The translations under genes were made by a program, and so were the position numbers. Of a stretch of DNA of 64,000 nucleotides, positions 6,901 through 19,656 are shown piece by piece. Position 1 is the first letter of the stretch. Each line of letters opens with the position of its first letter. The stretch is from an uncultured Gammaproteobacteria bacterium (GTDB lineage: Bacteria; Pseudomonadota; Gammaproteobacteria; Ga0077536), in NCBI GenBank assembly GCA_963976285.1, contig CAXBJY010000005.1:75242-139241 (forward strand). Reading direction: 5' to 3'. Below the pieces are notes generated by a model. That model was not told the origin of the DNA, searched no databases, and saw nothing but the letters and a program-made list of their open reading frames with translations.

Positions 6901-7728
6901 ATGGCACTGCAGATAGGAAAAATACTTGCGATCGTCGATCCGACGACGGACAAACAACTCGCGCTTTCGCGCGCGCTCGGCATCGCGGAACAACTCGATG
7001 CCGCCGTGCATGCCTACATCTGCTGTTATTCGCCGCTTGAAACGAGTCATTTTCTCGCGCTGAAACGCGCGGAAATCGCCCGCCACGAGGCGTGGCTGGA
7101 TCGCCTGCTCGAAAGCGAAAATCTCGGCGGGGTCGAGGTCACGACGCAGGTCGAATGGCGCGAGGACTGGCGTGAAGGGCTGGCCGAAGCAGCGGCGCAG
7201 GAAGAGTGCGACCTGATCGTGAAAACCGCGTTCGAACATGCGGAACCGGGGCGCCTGCTGCTGAAAACATCCGACTGGAGCGTGCTGCGCAGCGCGCAGA
7301 GCCCGGTACTGCTCGTGAAGCGCGAGTCGCTCGTCGCGGTCAAGCGCGTGCTCATCGCGATTAACCCGAAAGTTGAAGACGACAAGCATCGGCGCCTGAA
7401 CGAGAGCATGATCGCGTTTGCGAAGTTGCTGCGCGAGCAGGATGATGCGATCGAATTACATGCCGTGTCGGCCTACACCGGCGCGGAGCCGTTCACGCAT
7501 CCGCCGGAACTCGCCGCGCTGATCGGGATTGATGAAAGCCAGGCGCATTGTACGCAGGGTTCGCCGGGCGACGTCATCGTCGACTGCGCGAAGCTGCTGC
7601 AGTCCGAACTCGTCGTCATGGGGACGGTGTCGCGTTCCGGGCTGTCCGGGCTCGCAAAACCGAATACGGCGGAGCAGGCGCTCGACCGTCTCTCGGCCGA
7701 CGTGCTCGTGTTCACGTCGCCCGACTGA
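6901..7728 (+). CDS. uspE: Universal stress protein, tandem-domain UspE-like
   Basis: KILAIVDPT, SDWSVLR..SPVLLVK, VMGTVSRSGLSG...NTAEQ. Confidence 0.85.
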   Translation: MALQIGKILAIVDPTTDKQLALSRALGIAEQLDAAVHAYICCYSPLETSHFLALKRAEIARHEAWLDRLLESENLGGVEVTTQVEWREDWREGLAEAAAQEECDLIVKTAFEHAEPGRLLLKTSDWSVLRSAQSPVLLVKRESLVAVKRVLIAINPKVEDDKHRRLNESMIAFAKLLREQDDAIELHAVSAYTGAEPFTHPPELAALIGIDESQAHCTQGSPGDVIVDCAKLLQSELVVMGTVSRSGLSGLAKPNTAEQALDRLSADVLVFTSPD

Positions 7729-7747
7729 GCGCCACCCCGACGGCGGT

Positions 7748-8626
7748 CTAGCCTGCTGCGCTGCGCGCCGCGAGTTTGCGCGCGCGCACCGCGGCCTGCT
7801 CGGCGCGACGCGCATCGCCCGCGGCGCGCAGCGCGTCGATGTTGTCCGGCCCCACGCGCAGGAAATTCGCCTTCCAGTCATCCCGGGCATCCCACACGAG
7901 CGGCGTTTGCACGGTTTCGCCCGGAGTATCGGCATTGCGCAGGCGCCCGAGCGCCGTGTCCATGATGATCCGTTTGCTGTCATCGTCATACGGGCGGCCG
8001 CACGGGTTGCCGAGCGGGTAGTCCGTAAAGACGAAACGCGGAACACCGCAATACTCCACGATGTCTTTCGCCGAGCCGGTGATGACGGTGGCGATGCCGT
8101 GTGCTTCGAGTTGTCGCGCGACCAGACTCACGGTCTGGTGACAAACGGGTCACAACGGCACGAGCAGGGCGACGTCAACCGCATCCTCGACGCAGCCCGC
8201 GACGATCGCGGGGGCATCGCGCTCGATCGTGTGGCGTTGACTGTATTGCGTTGGCACGCAGTAGAAACGCGGGGCAAGGCGCCCGAGTTCGCCGGCCGCG
8301 ACGCGCCGCTCGAGTTCGCGCACGGGGAAGTAGCTGTCGCGGTCTTCGGTATGCGTGGCATCGCGATCCCACGACAGATCGCCGGTAAAAAATTTCTCCG
8401 GCGGGTTGCCGAGATCGCCGATGTGCAGGCGGCGATGTTCCTTGCGGTAGCTCTCATCGGGCATCGACGTGGTCACGATCGTCACCGTGCAGTCGCTGAG
8501 TTCGCGTCGCGGACGGGCGAACGGAATGTCATCGAAATGCGACCATTTGTACGGCTTGTCATAGCCCTGCGCGGCGTAATAAGCGCGTGTGCGTTCCATG
8601 TAAGCGACGCTCGTATCGTCTTTCAT
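7748..8626 (-). CDS. Selenoprotein, glycine/sarcosine/betaine/proline reductase subunit B (GrdB/PrdB)-like; Sec at codon 159 (UGA 8150-8152)
   Basis: Two ORF-track ORFs are in frame; reads VDVALLVPL-U-PVCHQTVSLVARQLEAHGIATV, then DYPLGNPCGRP; hairpin follows the UGA. Confidence 0.85.
8121..8139 (-). promoter_or_regulatory. Bacterial SECIS-like hairpin
   Basis: mRNA ACCAGAC-CGUGA-GUCUGGU, 7-bp stem beginning at the 11th nt after UGA. Confidence 0.75.
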
Positions 8627-8679
8627 ACCTTTGTCCTGGATTGACTGGATTCGTTTCGTGGCGGCGGGCCGCCGCCGGT

Positions 8680-8988
8680 TCATCGTTTCAGCAACTCGCG
8701 TTCCGCGGAAATTTCGCTCGCGACGACTACGGCGCGCTCGATTTTTGCGCTCGCGAGGAGACGGTCGAATTCTTCATCCGCTTGTTGCAGGTGGGCATTC
8801 AGGGATGCTTCGTCCGTCCATTTTTCGATCAGCCGGATTTCCGACGGCTCCGCGAGGTTGCGCGTGAATACGTAATCGAGGTTTCCTTCGTCCCGGCGAC
8901 TGCGTTCCGCACGGCGCTTCAGCGCCGGCACAAGCCGCTCGGCTTCGTCGGCGGATTCGAGCGTGATCGTACCGAGGATGATCAGCAT
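8680..8988 (-). CDS. Antibiotic biosynthesis monooxygenase (ABM)/quinol monooxygenase-like protein
   Basis: SRRDEGNLDY.F...IRLIEKWTDEASLNAH; GGAG RBS before ATG at 8988. Confidence 0.8.
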   Translation of the reverse strand: MLIILGTITLESADEAERLVPALKRRAERSRRDEGNLDYVFTRNLAEPSEIRLIEKWTDEASLNAHLQQADEEFDRLLASAKIERAVVVASEISAERELLKR

Positions 8989-9001
8989 GTGGCGGTCTCC
9001 G

Positions 9002-9733
9002 TCACGTGAGGTGAGCTGCGAGCGCGGCGCCGACGATATCGGGATCGGAGCGACGCGTGTAGTTGTCCGACTGGTCCATCCACACGACTTTGCCATCCGC
9101 ATCGACGAGCAGCGATGTTGGCACCGGCAGTCCCGCGCGGCCCGGGATTTTGAAGTTGTTGAAATTCTGGTTGCGGTAGCCAAAACGATCGATCAGTTCG
9201 AGTTCGGGATCCGCGAGCATCGTTGCCTCGAGCCCGTGCATGCCGCGACCCAATGTGATCTCTTTCGGCGTGTCCGTGGATACGGTCACGATGCGGACCC
9301 CCGCCGCATCGAGCGTCGGCCGCAATTCTTCCCATCGCCGTAACTCGGCGACACAGTAGGGTCACCAGTGGCCACGAAAGAATTTGATCAGGACCGGATT
9401 CCCGGCAAGCTCGCTGCTGTCAAACGTATTGCCTGCCGCGTCGAGCGCGGTGAACGCCGGGATCGCATCACCGACCCGGATCCTGTCGGCGCCGGCGCGC
9501 TGGGCGCCGGTCATGACGAAATACAGGAACAGGAAGCCGAGACCCGCGGCCCAGGCCGCGGCGGCGCCGCCGGCGAAACTCAGCGATAACAGGCCGAGCC
9601 CGCCGCCGATACCCCAGGCCACTGCGAACGGCCCCGGATTTTGCGGGATAGCGACGCGAAACGCGCGCCGGAACCACACAATCGTGGTTACGAGAACGAT
9701 GGCCAGTGCAATCAGCCCGGGGCTTGCCATCAT
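9002..9733 (-). CDS. Membrane-anchored AhpC/TSA (peroxiredoxin-like) selenoprotein; Sec at codon 124 (UGA 9362-9364)
   Basis: Hydrophobic N-terminus, VGDAIPAFTA, VLIKFFRGHW-U-PYCVAEL, VTVSTD, LADP, PVPTSLLVDADGKV; same frame across the UGA. Confidence 0.88.
9335..9351 (-). promoter_or_regulatory. Bacterial SECIS-like hairpin
   Basis: mRNA UCGCCG-AGUUA-CGGCGA, 17 nt, beginning at the 11th nt after UGA. Confidence 0.75.
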
Positions 9734-9844
9734 GGGACTCCAGTCGTCTGCCGTTCAGGCATTGAGGATAACGGCTCGGTATGAGCCCTGCAATTGAGCG
9801 CGAATCATGCGATGCCGGACAGTGTTCGGGCCGTGGTATCGCGC

Positions 9845-10831
9845 TTATTGCGCGATCGCCGTTGGATGGATCCCTTCGCCGTAGACAAAGCGGGAACCGA
9901 CCGCGCCGACGACCGCCGTGCGACGATCGAGGTCGAGACCGGCGCGCAGCCGGATCAGCGGTTCGATGCCGGTGCAATGTCCGGCCATCAGATGTTGCAC
10001 GCCGATATCACGCAGTTTCGCCGCCGTCCACTTGAGCGTTTCATCGTCGGCTGCAAACAGGTGCATCCCGCCCATGAGCGCGTGGATCGAGTGTGGCTGG
10101 ATCGCGCGTTGTACCTGTTCGAGCGTATTGACGGCGCCGGCATGGCCGCAGCCCAGCAGTACGATCGGGCCTTGCGCGGTGAGCACCGCGAGCGCCTGGC
10201 TGTCGGGCACAGGGTCTTCCACCCACTCGCCGTCAACTTTGATCCGGAGCGCGGGCGAATAGTTGCGTTCCGGGTTCGTTCGTTCCACCGGTCCCGTTAC
10301 CCAAACTGCGGGGCCAATGCGGGTGGGCTCGGCATATTCGATGATCGTTACGCCGGCCGCTTCCAGTTCACCGCGCAGCCCGATCATCTGGTTTACCTCC
10401 GCGTCGCCGCTGCTCGCGGGCATGCGCCGCGACGCGAAGAAGCCTTGTGCGACGTGAAACGTGCGCATCGCCGCCGGGTTTCGCGGACGCAGTTCCGCAA
10501 TCAACGGCAGCAGCCCGGTCGTGTGATCGAAATGAAAATGACTGAGCACGACGTCGGTGGCGCAGGACAGATCGATGTCCAGCACCCTTGCGTTACGAAT
10601 TACCGTGTCGGGATAGCGTCCGGCATCGAACAGGATGCAGCGACCATCAAGCTCGACGAGCGCGGACAGCCCCCACTCGCCGATGGTTTTGCCGTTCGCA
10701 AGATTCGACGACAGGATCGTAACGCTGACGTTTGCCGCGACTTCGACGGGTGCCTCGGCGTCCGCCGCGAACGGAACTGCGAGCAGTGCGCCGAGCAGCG
10801 CCGAGCCAACGAGCAGGGTCGGAAGATTCAT
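9845..10831 (-). CDS. Secreted MBL-fold metallo-hydrolase
   Basis: Signal peptide; GEWGLS, ILFDAG, SHFHFDH, GCGHAG, GGMHL, GHCTG. Confidence 0.88.
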   Translation of the reverse strand: MNLPTLLVGSALLGALLAVPFAADAEAPVEVAANVSVTILSSNLANGKTIGEWGLSALVELDGRCILFDAGRYPDTVIRNARVLDIDLSCATDVVLSHFHFDHTTGLLPLIAELRPRNPAAMRTFHVAQGFFASRRMPASSGDAEVNQMIGLRGELEAAGVTIIEYAEPTRIGPAVWVTGPVERTNPERNYSPALRIKVDGEWVEDPVPDSQALAVLTAQGPIVLLGCGHAGAVNTLEQVQRAIQPHSIHALMGGMHLFAADDETLKWTAAKLRDIGVQHLMAGHCTGIEPLIRLRAGLDLDRRTAVVGAVGSRFVYGEGIHPTAIAQ

Positions 10832-11195: not shown

Positions 11196-11265
11196 TGCCC
11201 GCGGGCTTCATCGACGAACGTTCATGTACTACTCATTTCGCACAGTATCAGCGGGTTTCTCCGCG

Positions 11266-12627
11266 ATGTTTCGATTACGGGCTGTTCGCGTCATGGGCGT
11301 GTTGACGACGGCACTGCTGTTACACCCGCGGCTCGAAGCCGTGGAGCGGGTCGTCGGCAGCGACGCGGGCTATGCGACGATTGGCGCGGCGCTCGAAGTC
11401 GCGCGCGCCGGTGACGTGATCCGGATCCGGCCCGGAACGTATCGTGAGTCGCTGCGGAGTTTCGCGCCGGGGGTCACGTTACAGGGCGACACGGAGGGCG
11501 AGGTCGTGATTACGGCATCGAGTGGCGTGTTCGATATTCAGCATGCCGACATCGAATTGCAGAACGTGATTGTTGACGGTGGCTTTGGGGCCGCGGACGC
11601 GTTGAAAGTGCGCACGGCGGCCGATCGGTTCGTGTTGCGTGGGGTCGAGGTGCGTCGCAGCGGCCACGACTGCATCGATCTCGAAGCACCGCGCGACGTC
11701 AGGATCACCGACAGCGTTATCCACGATTGCCTGCGTACGGCGGACCCGGATTGCCCGGAGGAGCCCTGTGCGCCGGTAGTGCGGTGCGACGATAACAATT
11801 GCCGCCGCGATGCTCACGGGATCGCGGCCGGCGCGGTGCAGCGCTTGCGCATTATCAACACGAAGATTCACACGTTTTCCGGTGACGCGGTGCAGGTAGA
11901 CGCCGATCGCGGGCAACCGGCGTGGGACGAGGTCACGATCGCGGGTTGTGAATTTCGTCTCGCGCCGCTCGACGCGGATGTGGGTGGTTTCGCAGCCGGC
12001 GTCGTGCCGGGCGAAAATGCCGTTGATACGAAGACGCCCGTCGTGGACGGGCCACCGTCGCGGCTCACGATCCGTGACACCATCGCCAGTGGATTCGGCG
12101 GCGGCCTCGTGCGCAACTCGGCGTTCAATCTGAAGGAAAACGTTGCCGTCGACATCGACGGGGTGACGGTTTACGACTCGCAGATCGCATTCAGGATCCG
12201 CGGCGCGAACGCAAAAAGTCCTTTTCGTGCCGCGGTCGGTATGCGTAACGTGGTCGTGTTCGACGTCGCGACGGCGTTTCGCTATGAAGGCGGCAGAAAC
12301 ACGATTGCGCTCGTGAACTCGACAATCGGGCGTGACGTCGGGCAGGTATTCGATGCCCGGGCGTCGGCGCCGGGCACGGTGATCAACGCCCGCAATGTGC
12401 TCGTCGTCGGTGACGCGCTGCCGCCCCAGATCACGGGTGCAACGAATCTCGCGATCAGCGCCCGCGGGTTCATCGATGCGCTCGCGCATGACTACCACCT
12501 GAGCGCATCAAGCCCGGCAGTTGATCGCGGCTCGGATGCGGGTGAGATCCCGGAGCGGGATCGCGATGGCCGGCCGCGCATCGTCGGGGAAACGATCGAC
12601 CTCGGCGCGTTCGAGTATCAGCGGTAG
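11266..12627 (+). CDS. Secreted right-handed beta-helix protein with choice-of-anchor-Q-like C-terminus
   Basis: YATIGAAL...GDVIRIRPGTY; C-terminus DYHLSASSPAVDRG...DRDGRPR...IDLGAFEYQ; start uncertain. Confidence 0.8.
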   Translation: MFRLRAVRVMGVLTTALLLHPRLEAVERVVGSDAGYATIGAALEVARAGDVIRIRPGTYRESLRSFAPGVTLQGDTEGEVVITASSGVFDIQHADIELQNVIVDGGFGAADALKVRTAADRFVLRGVEVRRSGHDCIDLEAPRDVRITDSVIHDCLRTADPDCPEEPCAPVVRCDDNNCRRDAHGIAAGAVQRLRIINTKIHTFSGDAVQVDADRGQPAWDEVTIAGCEFRLAPLDADVGGFAAGVVPGENAVDTKTPVVDGPPSRLTIRDTIASGFGGGLVRNSAFNLKENVAVDIDGVTVYDSQIAFRIRGANAKSPFRAAVGMRNVVVFDVATAFRYEGGRNTIALVNSTIGRDVGQVFDARASAPGTVINARNVLVVGDALPPQITGATNLAISARGFIDALAHDYHLSASSPAVDRGSDAGEIPERDRDGRPRIVGETIDLGAFEYQR

Positions 12628-16010: not shown

Positions 16011-16582
16011 TCAGGCGGCAGGGCAGGCAATCGGATCGACGAGCGGCATGCGCAGCTCGCTCGTGTAACGGCGTGCCTGCGCATCCGTGAGCCACGCCTG
16101 GGCCGTCGCCGGCAGCATCTCGCTCAGCGTGACGACGTTACCTGCTTCACGTTCGTGCTTCAGAATGCGTCGCGCGATGTCCAGCGTCAATGGTGCGGTG
16201 AAATCGACGTAAACCGGTTTCGTTTCGAGCGGTGCGCGGATGAACACTTCCCGTGGCAGGCCCATTGCGTGCTGCCAGCTTCGGGCGGCCTGAAAGCGGC
16301 GCGCGGCCGGGGATGTGTCGAGAAACGGAAGATCCGCCGCGGCGACCCGCCAGCTTTCCCGGCGCACGATCAGATCGTCGAGATAGATCCGTGGCGTATG
16401 CGCCTGCGCGGCGATCGGCCGCAAGCCATTCATGACGCAGAATCTGAACACGGCCTGGAATATCGTCGCGAGCGGGCGTGAGCGGCCGTCGCGGATGTCG
16501 CGAATTCTGATCCGTCCGTGTCCACGAGTTGCAGGGAGGCGACGTCGACACACTGTGCGGGCGGGTGATCAGAGCGCCGGTA
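16011..16582 (-). pseudogene. 3' remnant of a lantibiotic dehydratase (small LanB/PEARL-like) gene
   Basis: HTPRIYLDDLIVRRESW, GLPREVF, ETKPVYVDF, VTLSEMLP..QAWLTD...RYTSELR; only about 190 codons, with a frameshift near 16510. Confidence 0.7.
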
Positions 16583-17674
16583 TCAGCCGAGTGTATTCGC
16601 GGCCGACGGGAAATCGTTGAGCCCGTAGGCTGCGCGAAAATCCTCGCTCGCGGTCAATACGACCCGTTCCACGCTGATCCCGATCGCGTTCGCGGCGCGA
16701 TCGACGAGGCTGAAGTCGCCGGCGATGACGGACGCGGCGACCACGGCGGCCGGACTCATCGCGCCCGCGAGTGCCGTGCGTGCGCGGGCGAGCGCATTCA
16801 GATCGCTGCCGATCACGGCATCGGCGAAGGCGAACAGTTCGCGGCCGTGCTCGACGCCGCTGTCACGGTCGATATCAAACACACCGTCGAGTTCGATGTT
16901 CAGTTGCAGGGCTTTGCCACTCTCACGGAGGACATGGGTGTGCCAGGTGGTTCAGTAAAAACACTGGTTCAGCGCGGACACCCTCGCCGCGACGAGTTCG
17001 ATCTGCGGGCGCGACAGGGCCGCGTGTGAACTGTGCGTCAGATCGAAGATGTTCTCCATTGAAAAATATTCCCGATCCATTATGTGGATCAGGCGGCGGG
17101 CTTCGTCCGGGACGAGACTCAGGGAGCGCAGGATGTTCGCGGCCTTGTGTTTGCCGTACAGCGACACGGCGAGTTCGCCACCAGCCGGAGCGTTCGGTAC
17201 GGTCGCGGTGAAGAAGCCCTCGTTCGTCGCCTCCGACGGGCGCTCGAATGTCGGCGCGTGGCCGTCGTTCGGGGTGGCCAGCGCACGTGCCGGAACGCCG
17301 ATGCCGCGGGCAAACACATCGAGATGCGCGAGCCGCGCGACGAGTCCGACGATTTCGACATAGGCACCTTCCGTGACGCCCGTGGCCTGCACCGCGGCGC
17401 AATACCCGCGATCGATCGTCGTGCCGCCGAGTGCGACGTCGCGCGCGAGCTGGCGCGCCGCCGCGGGCAGTTCGGCGCTGTCGACGAGGTGCTCGTCGCC
17501 GATCGACTCCTGGATGCCGGCGTCGACACGCGCCCGGCGTGCCTCGGCCGCGATCGCGGTGCGTTCGGCCGCCGTACCCCAGGTGCCCGGTTCGGCGTAA
17601 GAGCGTAATTCGTCGGCGTGCAGTTCCGCGGTTTCTTCAGGCACGGGGAAAACGGAATCGGCATATAACGGCAT
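16583..17674 (-). CDS. AhpD-like (alkylhydroperoxidase/CMD) selenoprotein; Sec at codon 241 (UGA 16952-16954)
   Basis: LSRPQIELVAARVSALNQCFY-U-TTWH...LRESG continues in frame without a stop into ORF 16583..16882. Confidence 0.82.
16917..16937 (-). promoter_or_regulatory. Possible SECIS hairpin
   Basis: mRNA CCAU-GUC-CUC-CGU-GAG-A-GUGG, 14 nt after UGA; imperfect stem. Confidence 0.5.
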
Positions 17675-17897: not shown

Positions 17898-18434
17898 TCA
17901 GTCGACGGCGCCGATGATAATCGACGTGGAGCAGTGGTAGACGTTCGTCGTCGTGCCCATGCACCAGTTGATGTCGTTACTCTTGCCGGGGTTGTAGACG
18001 GCACGGTCGCCCTCGTTGCGCGAACACAGACAGCGGCCGCAACTGCTCTTGCCGCAACAGTCGTTATAGGAAATGATGTAGTCCTTGCCGTCGCCCGGAT
18101 TGCGACACGTACCGATCCAGGTGACCGTGGACATCTCCGTTCCCGGCGGGCACGTATTCTGCGAGCCGCCGCAGCAGCTGCACAGATAGCCGTCCATTGC
18201 GCAATTGCGCCAGTATTCACACGCCAGCGGATCCCCCTGCGGCCCGTCGATGAGTGCTTCATCCGGCGCCGGTTCGCGTGCCGGCGCGGCGGCGCGGGCC
18301 ACCGGCAGCAGCGGCAGCAGGCTGCTACCGACGAGCAAGCGGCCGAAGCGGCCGAGAAAGCCGCGGCGCGAATGCAGGCGCGCGAGACGGCGACCAAGGC
18401 GTTCACAATGGGCATCGAAGCGGTTCAGCGGCAT
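17898..18434 (-). CDS. mauA: TTQ amine dehydrogenase small subunit (MauA/AauA family, aromatic amine dehydrogenase-like)
   Basis: Tat SRRGFL; CEYWRNCAMDGYLCSCCGG..CPPG, TWIGTC and NDINWC (the two TTQ Trp positions). Confidence 0.93.
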   Translation of the reverse strand: MPLNRFDAHCERLGRRLARLHSRRGFLGRFGRLLVGSSLLPLLPVARAAAPAREPAPDEALIDGPQGDPLACEYWRNCAMDGYLCSCCGGSQNTCPPGTEMSTVTWIGTCRNPGDGKDYIISYNDCCGKSSCGRCLCSRNEGDRAVYNPGKSNDINWCMGTTTNVYHCSTSIIIGAVD

Positions 18435-18447
18435 ACGGGGTTCTCTG

Positions 18448-19656
18448 TCAGTGACCGACCGGGGTTTCGATGCCCGTCGGGGTATAGCCGATCTGTTCGA
18501 CGGAGCGCAGGAACTCGCCGGAATCCGCCGCGTAGACATCGATCGCATTGCGCGCCACAGCGGCGGTGAATAGCAGCGGCGCGGCATCCTGGGTCAGCGC
18601 GATCAGGCCGGTGTCGGCACGCGTCTCGATGACGCCGCGGCGCTGCAGGCTTGCGAGGTCGTACACCCAGATGTGCCGGCCCGGGTCCTTGCGCGTTTCC
18701 TGACCGCCACCGCGATGCACGATCGAAAACAGCCGCTGACTCGCCGCGTGTACCGCGAGATGGCGGACCCCGCCGATCCGCCATCCGTCGGCGCGTTCCG
18801 CATCGCTGAGCAGCGAGACGGGTGGCGAGAACCGAGGCGCGGCGGTGCGGGCGTCGACCCGGTACAACGAACCGTCGAACGATACGAAGTGCCACACACC
18901 ATTCGCGCGCACGCCTTTTTCGCTCAGCGGATCACCCTCCGGATCGAAGAACGGTTGCGAGCGGGTCGTGCTCAGCGCGGTGCCCGCGTCATCGAGTTCG
19001 ACGGCCAGCAGCGAGCCGTCGCCGCACAGCGAAAAGAATCGCCGCGGACCGCTTGGGTAGATCAGAGCGCAGCCCGGGGTTTCGATTTCGCCGACGAAAC
19101 GTCGCGCCGGCAGATCGACAACGCTGACGGACGTCGCCGGGGTGAGGTTGAAGATCAGCATGAAGCGATCGTCGTCCGTGAGCACCGCGTTGTGCGGGGT
19201 CGGGATCGTCGAGGCGCGTTTGTCCGGAATGTCGATCTCGGCGATCGGCGCCAGGTTCGTCGGCGAGTAGATCGACACGACATCATCGCGTTTGCCGCGC
19301 GTATAGCGGCTGTAATACGTCTCCGCGGAATAGATTTCGCGGTGATGCCGCGGCAGGGTCAATTGCGTGAACGAATAACCCGTACTGAGCATGCCGAGGA
19401 AGCGACCACTGTCGCCGTCGATCAGGGATGCACGCCCGTCGGTCATGTAGTCGTAGACCATGTCGTACACCCATAGCCAGTGCGGATCGGGTTTCGCCGG
19501 CAGCGTATTCACGCGATTCAGGGGTTCGGGTGCGAGTTCCGCGGCCGTTGCGGATCCGGCCGGCAGGGCGATGACCCAGCCGATGAGCGCGATCGCCTGC
19601 CACCCGCGCAGTACGGCAATGAAGGGGCGGCACTTGCCTGCGCTGCGATGGTCCAT
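18448..19656 (-). CDS. mauB: TTQ amine dehydrogenase large beta-propeller subunit (MauB/AauB family)
   Basis: IDGDSGRFLGM, ETYYSR..RG.R.D, NLTPATSVSVVD, PGCALIYP, SLCGDG. Confidence 0.9.
   Translation of the reverse strand: MDHRSAGKCRPFIAVLRGWQAIALIGWVIALPAGSATAAELAPEPLNRVNTLPAKPDPHWLWVYDMVYDYMTDGRASLIDGDSGRFLGMLSTGYSFTQLTLPRHHREIYSAETYYSRYTRGKRDDVVSIYSPTNLAPIAEIDIPDKRASTIPTPHNAVLTDDDRFMLIFNLTPATSVSVVDLPARRFVGEIETPGCALIYPSGPRRFFSLCGDGSLLAVELDDAGTALSTTRSQPFFDPEGDPLSEKGVRANGVWHFVSFDGSLYRVDARTAAPRFSPPVSLLSDAERADGWRIGGVRHLAVHAASQRLFSIVHRGGGQETRKDPGRHIWVYDLASLQRRGVIETRADTGLIALTQDAAPLLFTAAVARNAIDVYAADSGEFLRSVEQIGYTPTGIETPVGH

Follow-up and report, generated by a model that had tools for sequence, protein, structure and literature searches.

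The subject of this analysis is a block of four co-oriented genes in a 64,000-nucleotide (nt) stretch of an uncultured Gammaproteobacteria genome (contig CAXBJY010000005.1, forward-strand positions 75,242 to 139,241; the whole stretch is referred to as the window). The block encodes a metallo-β-lactamase (MBL)-fold hydrolase, a peroxiredoxin-like (Prx-like) protein, an ABM protein and a protein resembling the B-type reductase subunits GrdB and PrdB (GrdB-like); the Prx-like and GrdB-like genes each contain an in-frame TGA. The explanation we favour, with a probability of roughly two in three (0.68), is that these are two genuine, separately evolving selenoprotein genes of catalogued families, and that their order is specific to one lineage rather than the mark of a conserved module. 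The original prediction had proposed a possibly uncharacterised Se-dependent module, in which the thioredoxin (Trx)-fold selenoprotein recycles the B-type subunit. This was not borne out: the linkage is confined to the nearest relatives, and both families have been catalogued in selenoproteome surveys since 2005.

The two genes were compared with relatives from several sources; genomes are given G-numbers below (G000 is the genome of the window, the others are related or control genomes), contigs C-numbers and surveyed loci L-numbers. In species-representative genomes, 599 stretches matched the search pattern and 540 of these encode a GrdB-like relative; the best 80 were analysed and span Gamma-, Alpha- and Deltaproteobacteria, Actinomycetota, Chloroflexota, Spirochaetales and Binatia, as labelled in the records. 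The selenocysteine (Sec) site of these 80 loci is TGA in 78 and Cys in one, with one unresolved by the pattern (78 of 79 readable). A parallel set of 80 metagenome Prx-like loci (47–86% identity) has TGA in 75, the other five being unresolved by the pattern. In the window genes, reading frame and protein conservation continue through both TGAs, which lie in W-U-P-Y-C and L-U-P-V-C and align with Cys in homologues, in agreement with the in-frame UGAs in U-P-x-C motifs described earlier. Fourteen full-length GrdB-like homologues carry Cys at the Sec site, within an invariant C-P-x-C-H-Q-T block, and an alignment of 15 sequences shows no variation in the C/U-P-x-C columns. The Prx-like motif FFRGHW-U-PYC has UxxC where Cys homologues have CxxC; W-C-P-Y-C is found in 18 of 19 homologues, and the Trp of the 19th stems from a TGA translated under a different code. 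P0125, the full-length database protein nearest to the Prx-like protein, reads H-W-W-P-Y-C, the Trp at the Sec site evidently being an annotation artefact of a code in which TGA means Trp.

A 7-bp stem with a 5-nt loop follows 3' of each TGA (loop AGUUA in the Prx-like gene, CGUGA in the GrdB-like gene). The stems begin at nt 13 and nt 14, respectively, counted from the U of UGA. The hairpins that had been predicted at one and the same offset are thus present, although the offsets are equal only once the closing G·U pair of the Prx-like stem is discounted. Both loops have G-U at positions 2–3, which we take to be the bacterial consensus of the selenocysteine insertion sequence (SECIS). Single-sequence fold z-scores of −0.6 and −0.7 were unremarkable, and the hairpins were therefore examined in relatives. 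The CGUGA loop recurs in 67 of 78 GrdB-like loci. Across 77 distinct sequences, 97.2% of the cells of this hairpin are paired, and compensatory changes affect two pairs, in 14 cells (C-G to U-A in six, G-C to A-U in eight). None of 500 shuffles reached the values for cells paired, two-sided changes and covariation score, while two pair-count measures were matched by 246 of the 500; slid controls gave 15–31% of cells paired. The Prx-like hairpin is kept in eight Sec orthologues found by motif search, with one two-sided change (L104), and is absent from a Cys form (L108). Position just 3' of the UGA, compensatory changes and loss in the Cys form together identify a bacterial SECIS.

The genome of the window (6.0 Mb in 192 contigs, 97% complete) also encodes the machinery for Sec insertion. 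Profile searches and ARAGORN place selA, selB and tRNA-Sec contiguously on C20 and selD on C71; selA (587.7 bits), selB (417 bits) and selD (281.5 bits) all score above the curated cut-offs, and the tRNA-SeC (tca) is located at C20:62280-62375. The genome check for selA, selB, selC and selD proposed with the original prediction thus returned all four. On sequence grounds, both genes are genuine selenoprotein genes. That the TGAs are instead true stops, or the genes decaying fragments or assembly errors, is hardly credible. Translation table 11 does yield four separate open reading frames (ORFs) and there is no RNA run among those that contain the stretch, but frame and strong protein conservation run across both TGAs, independent loci share the same TGA (78 of 79 and 75 of 80), the hairpins show both conservation and covariation, and the Sec machinery is complete.

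The arrangement of the genes has a much narrower distribution than the genes themselves. From the GrdB-like side, the other three block proteins were searched for by tblastn in the 80 loci, with up to 6 kb of flank to either side as the contig allowed. Prx-like and ABM homologues were located in one locus, L017, which is G003 (78–88% identity); the MBL gene is missing there. From the Prx-like side, 53 of the 80 metagenome loci were informative (at least 1300 nt downstream), and ABM and GrdB-like genes follow in two of them, L129 (86%) and L130 (73%), and in the latter the Prx-like gene is also preceded by the MBL gene (85% identity). Of the loci that could be judged, those next in similarity (L131, L133, L134 and L137, 61–64%) lack a GrdB-like match at E ≤ 0.001, and an ABM-like match, weak at 26% identity, is seen only in L137. 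An ABM homologue stands at this position only in G003/L017, L129 and L130. Among 30 related genomes, nine have orthologues of both selenoproteins, and these are adjacent only in G003. In the other eight (G001, G004, G005, G006, G009, G014, G017 and G018) they reside on different contigs, with none of the other block genes in the flanks (up to 1.5 kb; in G001, no more than 0.7 kb 3' of the Prx-like gene). The phyletic patterns are likewise mismatched: G013 has the Prx-like orthologue without a GrdB-like match, whereas G007, G010 and G012 have the GrdB-like orthologue without the anchored Prx-like one.

A wider look at the neighbours of the GrdB-like gene revealed no conserved partner. In all-against-all clustering of neighbouring ORFs, the largest non-self, non-shadow clusters occur in 14, 12, 12 and 10 of 81 loci; two largest-cluster representatives were recognisable by eye, as AMP-ligase-like and enoyl-CoA-hydratase-like. 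A Pfam scan of small same-strand neighbours found a Trx-fold family in none of 125 ORFs, the scan covering table-11 ORFs of 75–300 aa (125 of 214 candidates) and being blind to Sec-split neighbours. The commonest immediate neighbour is an HpcH/HpaI aldolase gene, downstream on the same strand in six gammaproteobacterial, mostly Pseudomonadales, loci (L035, L055, L074, L079, L084 and L087, at about 7000-7900 in each). Every locus with the block order has at least 73% identity to the window proteins, and the order was found neither beyond close relatives nor gained independently. It goes back to a recent ancestor shared by a few species within a single genus of marine Gammaproteobacteria. As the arrangement is recent and limited to few species, synteny at that divergence needs no functional explanation. 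Conserved linkage elsewhere, on which the module proposal depended, is therefore restricted to G003, L129 and L130, and is absent from 79 of 80 GrdB-like and 51 of 53 Prx-like loci.

The lack of canonical reductase partners, reported earlier for the window, was followed up in the genome. For GrdA it stands: the GRDA model (PF04723) has no match in G000, and this absence is meaningful because the same search recovered GrdA through its TGA, with E 1e-43, in G069, one of 41 control genomes. GRDA was also without a match in five other genomes carrying the GrdB-like family and in five relatives. For PrdA/GrdE the lack is less secure, as PF09338 and TIGR04480 gave no match in G000 but neither search had a positive control, PF09338 being blank even in the GrdA-bearing G069. 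G000 contains two further GrdB-like Sec paralogues, on C119 (39% identity) and C22 (31%), with unrelated neighbours, and relatives with any GrdB-like match have one to six. Stand-alone status is thus the rule for the GrdB-like subfamily and not a peculiarity of this locus; in most genomes carrying it, the family works without GrdA, PrdA/GrdE or a fixed neighbour. Long, GrdB-sized relatives were also encountered, as open frames of ~410–450 aa with one in-frame TGA each in G004, G005, G006, G009, G012, G014, G017 and G018. They match GrdB-like residues of about 105–254 (e.g. G014:C1:323057-323500 and G017:C28:192786-193214); a search of five of these genomes for GrdA was negative, and no such long gene was found in G000.

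Assignment of the GrdB-like protein to a known family was attempted at the level of profiles and of predicted structure. Pfam offers no family for it, and the GRDB model does not reach 0.01; PF07355 is precomputed on some close homologues. The best NCBIfam match is PrdB (TIGR04483, E 2.3e-15, residues 113–262 against model positions 82–232), whose 56.7 bits are far under the 300-bit equivalog cut-off, so that the protein does not qualify as PrdB proper. Weaker matches are GrdH (1.9e-6), GrdF (2.8e-6) and TIGR01918 (6e-4). With 16–27 bits for the GrdB, GrdF and GrdH models against cut-offs of 65–800, and 292 aa against about 430 aa, it falls short of these as well. The significant PrdB and GrdB-family matches, together with the Sec in UxxC, do place it in the GrdB/PrdB selenoprotein B superfamily. 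The protein has an N-terminal region of ~110 residues of its own, with invariant residues, which is absent from PrdB. The structure prediction shows, at moderate confidence, a doubly wound alpha/beta domain (mean pLDDT, i.e. predicted local distance difference test, of 73; core of about 50–260 mostly high), with Sec178 predicted at a strand end/helix start. The family profile, searched against PDB sequences, returned no solved relative, and Foldseek of the model against the PDB returned nothing at E ≤ 0.001. VIA-align gave, over residues 60–272, generic alpha/beta neighbours only, namely LacI/periplasmic-binding-like folds at Z 10.2 and Rossmann-like folds of short-chain dehydrogenases/reductases at Z of about 8–9; such neighbours provide no functional lead, nor do they show the fold to be new. 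A 446-aa database protein (P0074) has an N-terminal NUDIX domain (PF00293) fused to a Cys-form GrdB-like domain.

The Prx-like protein is more readily placed. PF00578 (85.7 bits, cut-off 26) and PF08534 (72 bits) assign it to the AhpC/TSA fold above the Pfam gathering score. Three conserved hydrophobic segments precede the fold (about 5–21, 35–55 and 57–76), with a basic loop after the first and basic residues after the third. Following the positive-inside rule for these basic residues, the UxxC domain is probably cytoplasmic and tethered to the membrane. Its motif suggests that the protein is most likely a selenol/thiol oxidoreductase of the thioredoxin type rather than a TxxC-type peroxidase.

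Neither family is new to the literature. A database search with the GrdB-like protein returned 2277 homologues at E ≤ 0.001 among 8000 candidates scored, under the source names 'glycine reductase', 'D-proline reductase PrdB' and 'hypothetical'. The stretch itself occurs in 19 runs from 12 studies, mostly marine metagenomes. In the accessible part of the Sargasso Sea survey, 'proline reductase PrdB' (UxxC) has 42 Sec genes and is the third most abundant family there (PMC1088965); the accessible part of the Global Ocean Sampling (GOS) survey gives 235 Sec versus 110 Cys forms (PMC2398784). For 'Prx-like' (UxxC) the corresponding parts give 22 in the Sargasso Sea and 225 in GOS (PMC1088965, PMC2398784). 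The GrdB-like family is most probably the 'PrdB' family of these marine surveys. Neither the absence of PrdA nor the gene neighbourhood of the marine PrdB homologues is discussed in the accessible parts of PMC1088965, PMC2398784, PMC9312934 (2022) and PMC13188914 (2026), supplements aside, and targeted full-text literature searches returned nothing on a lack of PrdA or on the neighbourhood of PrdB-like homologues. The term 'GrdB-like' appears in the literature for Synergistota fluoroacetate reduction, which concerns another family. Selenoprotein gene pairs on record in the accessible part of PMC13188914 are grdA-grdB, prdB-prdC, Prx with SelW-like and Prx-like with AhpD-like, and the same part describes operonic clustering in metagenomes for Prx with SelW-like and Prx-like with AhpD-like.

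The layout of the block is summarized in Table 1. ORF calls and read-through translation reproduced the four co-oriented genes of the original prediction, all on the minus strand of the window at 7748–10831, with gaps of 111, 13 and 53 nt from the MBL to the GrdB-like gene. A Shine–Dalgarno-like motif was read before each of the four starts. Because of the 13- and 53-nt gaps and these motifs, the block is probably co-transcribed. It is flanked by a divergent plus-strand gene (11224–12627) and a convergent gene for a universal stress protein (6901–7728). An alternative ATG of the GrdB-like gene at 8683 overlaps the ABM stop; in the alignment, homologues begin near M20. As had been anticipated for standard gene callers, translation table 11 breaks up both selenoprotein genes, the Prx-like gene into 123 + 107 aa and the GrdB-like gene into 177 + 127 aa. 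A promoter and terminator scan was uninformative (no promoter-like sites; five terminator-like sites versus 3.9 expected), and Rfam gave nothing but two sub-threshold chance matches. The window is indeed rich in oxygenases, with two P450s, TauD, two luciferase-like monooxygenases and LigB.

Table 1. Genes, recoded codons and hairpins of the four-gene block (window coordinates)
Feature	Position	Strand	Remarks
MBL-fold hydrolase, 328 aa	9845..10831	-	first gene of the block; hydrophobic signal-like N-terminus; Pfam Lactamase_B 8.1e-6
Prx-like (AhpC/TSA fold) selenoprotein, 243 aa	9002..9733	-	membrane-anchored (predicted); read-through translation; Pfam AhpC-TSA 3.1e-24, Redoxin 5.9e-20
In-frame TGA, Sec124 of the Prx-like protein	9362..9364	-	W-U-P-Y-C
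SECIS-like hairpin of the Prx-like gene	9334..9352	-	7-bp stem GUCGCCG/CGGCGAU, loop AGUUA, from fold
ABM (dimeric alpha+beta barrel) gene, 102 aa	8680..8988	-	Pfam ABM 2.5e-12
Stand-alone PrdB/GrdB-like selenoprotein, 292 aa from M20	7748..8626	-	motif LVPL-U-PVCHQTVSL
In-frame TGA of the GrdB-like gene	8150..8152	-	U178 in the 311-aa reading, U159 in the 292-aa product; L-U-P-V-C
SECIS hairpin of the GrdB-like gene	8121..8139	-	ACCAGAC-CGUGA-GUCUGGU

For two separately evolving selenoproteins, the following course of events can be envisaged. Each UGA would be recoded by its own SECIS hairpin, via the selA-selB-tRNA(Sec) cluster and the selD of this genome. The Prx-like protein would serve as a membrane-tethered thiol/selenol:disulfide oxidoreductase, with UxxC on an AhpC/TSA fold. 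In the GrdB-like protein, by analogy with PrdB and GrdB, the Sec selenolate would attack the substrate nucleophilically, the neighbouring Cys181 would resolve the adduct to a Se–S bond, and this bond would be reduced by a general thiol system. The N-terminal 110 residues may supply the binding site that PrdA/GrdE gives to the clostridial enzymes.

The number and placement of selenoprotein genes in G000 bear on the alternatives. A rough genome scan, in which candidates were accepted after a UxxC/CxxU filter and inspection, yielded at least 13 credible UxxC/CxxU selenoprotein genes, a rough lower bound: three Prx-like, three GrdB-like, four U-G-S-C, two CMD/AhpD-like and one Trx-like. With a filter on third-position GC content (GC3) or codon log-odds alone, the TGA scans were swamped by false positives. 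The four U-G-S-C candidates and their surroundings are found at C68:11949-14461, C50:14429-20685, C20:56586-57116 and C20:21998-22645. On C68, a soluble Sec-Prx-like gene follows the candidate 1.7 kb downstream, with lipoprotein-like and cupin-like genes between; the C50 gene lies 5.7 kb from another Sec-Prx-like gene, and one C20 gene about 1.7 kb upstream of selA. The window itself contains a third selenoprotein gene at 16589–17674 on the minus strand (TGA 16954–16952), for a 362-aa CMD/AhpD-like protein with C-F-Y-U (Pfam CMD 1.6e-5). Table 11 renders it as a 240-aa ORF and a tail, and an 84%-identical copy is present at the syntenic place in G003. Beside it are methylamine dehydrogenase light- and heavy-chain genes (17898–19656, minus strand); a 180-aa ORF (16011–16553, minus strand), situated between those genes and TauD, weakly matches the end of a lantibiotic dehydratase N-terminal domain.

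Several observations weigh against two separately evolving genes in a merely lineage-specific order. Two selenoprotein pairs occur within 2 kb in G000, versus about 0.05 expected by our own rough estimate: the present locus, and the U-G-S-C and Prx-like genes on C68, a pair otherwise seen only in G003. In three of 80 loci (L037:3356-3874, L046:2149-2800 and L047:5400-6050; Rhodospirillales/Reyranella as labelled), the GrdB-like gene is immediately preceded by a co-oriented AhpD-like gene, which in the two loci that were translated, L046 and L047, encodes selenocysteine in a C-P-F-U motif. Such tandems would represent another type of selenoprotein pair. L173 has an anchored Prx-like gene and, 775 nt downstream of it, a different GrdB-like paralogue, the two being separated by an ORF on the opposite strand; with several paralogues per genome, finding this once among about 53 loci is near chance by our estimate. 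Together, the AhpD-like tandems and L173 could reflect locally encoded, interchangeable redox partners of the GrdB-like family. None of these hints of coupling (clustering, AhpD-like tandems, L173) is strong. To them should be added that the PrdA/GrdE searches had no positive control, and that recoding and co-transcription are read from the DNA, the runs that contain the stretch including no RNA.

A dedicated module, in which the Prx-like protein recycles the Se–S form of the stand-alone B-type protein and ABM, perhaps also MBL, acts on the same substrate, would fit the tight, co-oriented spacing with Shine–Dalgarno-like motifs, the order kept in G003, L129 and L130 at 73–96% protein identity, and the probably cytoplasmic location of both catalytic domains. 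PrdB and GrdB are, moreover, established to need an external reductant (also in the accessible part of PMC13188914), and the AhpD-like CxxU gene directly upstream of other GrdB-like genes in three of 80 loci points the same way. We nevertheless consider this module unlikely, as synteny at 73–96% identity is expected without selection, both orthologues are unlinked in all eight other related genomes having both, the phyletic patterns are discordant (G013 versus G007, G010 and G012), 76 of 80 GrdB-like loci have no adjoining redox selenoprotein, and the ABM gene is absent at other loci. A broader and rather speculative version, which we hold to be improbable, sees the stand-alone PrdB-like protein as a self-sufficient Se-dependent reductase of a small substrate that draws electrons from an adjacent thiol/selenol oxidoreductase, the locus being a modular two-selenoprotein relay. 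The protein's own N-terminal domain would then replace PrdA/GrdE in a family that nearly always uses Sec and occurs in many phyla, mostly in aerobic marine and soil bacteria. In this genus the donor would be the Sec-Prx-like protein tethered to the membrane; in Reyranella-like alphaproteobacteria it would be a Sec-AhpD-like protein. Distinctly unlikely, in our judgement, is that selenoprotein genes cluster for shared regulation (selenium supply, oxidative stress) or joint transfer without direct redox coupling. Several selenoprotein genes do lie near each other: the CMD/AhpD-like CxxU gene of the window is at a distance of 7.6 kb from the block, U-G-S-C and Prx-like genes are 1.7 kb apart on C68, and a U-G-S-C gene is beside selA on C20. 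Operonic clusters of Prx with SelW-like and Prx-like with AhpD-like genes are described for metagenomes in the accessible part of PMC13188914. The pairs, however, recur only in G003 and are not kept in G012, G014 or G017, the promoter/terminator and Rfam scans revealed neither a regulator nor a shared motif, and the scan behind the selenoprotein count was crude.

In summary, with two separately evolving selenoprotein genes as the favoured reading, a family counted for twenty years as the ocean's "proline reductase PrdB" is not a proline reductase subunit but stands alone, without a fixed partner. The role of this orphan PrdB-like family in aerobic marine bacteria is a question that predates the present locus and reaches well beyond it. 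Were the modular relay true, concrete protein pairs for testing the role of an abundant marine selenoenzyme would be at hand, here and in the AhpD-like/GrdB-like tandems. There is also a lesson for annotation: three selenoprotein genes in one window are split by standard gene callers, in a genome that has at least 13.

Comparison with described systems underlines both kinship and divergence. Two co-oriented selenoprotein genes in one block recall the pairs reported in PMC13188914, although a Prx-like/PrdB-like pair is not named in its accessible part and the present one is limited to a few close relatives. Like the 'Prx-like 1' UxxC thiol:disulfide oxidoreductases, the Prx-like protein combines the PF00578 fold with a thioredoxin-like UxxC that replaces the peroxiredoxin TxxU/C; the conserved three-segment N-terminal anchor of its subfamily is unmentioned in the accessible parts of the literature consulted. 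GrdB, GrdF and GrdH (PF07355, TIGR01918) share Sec with the GrdB-like protein, which is weakly similar to their C-terminal half, but it lacks their UxxCxxC motif, reading U-P-V-C-H-Q-T, and measures about 290 versus about 430 aa. Clostridial D-proline reductase PrdB has the same UxxC Sec motif and presumably the same selenol/thiol chemistry, whereas the GrdB-like protein has its own N-terminal region of ~110 residues and an aerobic marine proteobacterium as host. With the marine 'PrdB' homologues of Zhang, Fomenko and Gladyshev (2005) and Zhang and Gladyshev (2008), as described in the accessible parts of those surveys, it shares the kind of environment, the UxxC motif and the bias of Sec over Cys.

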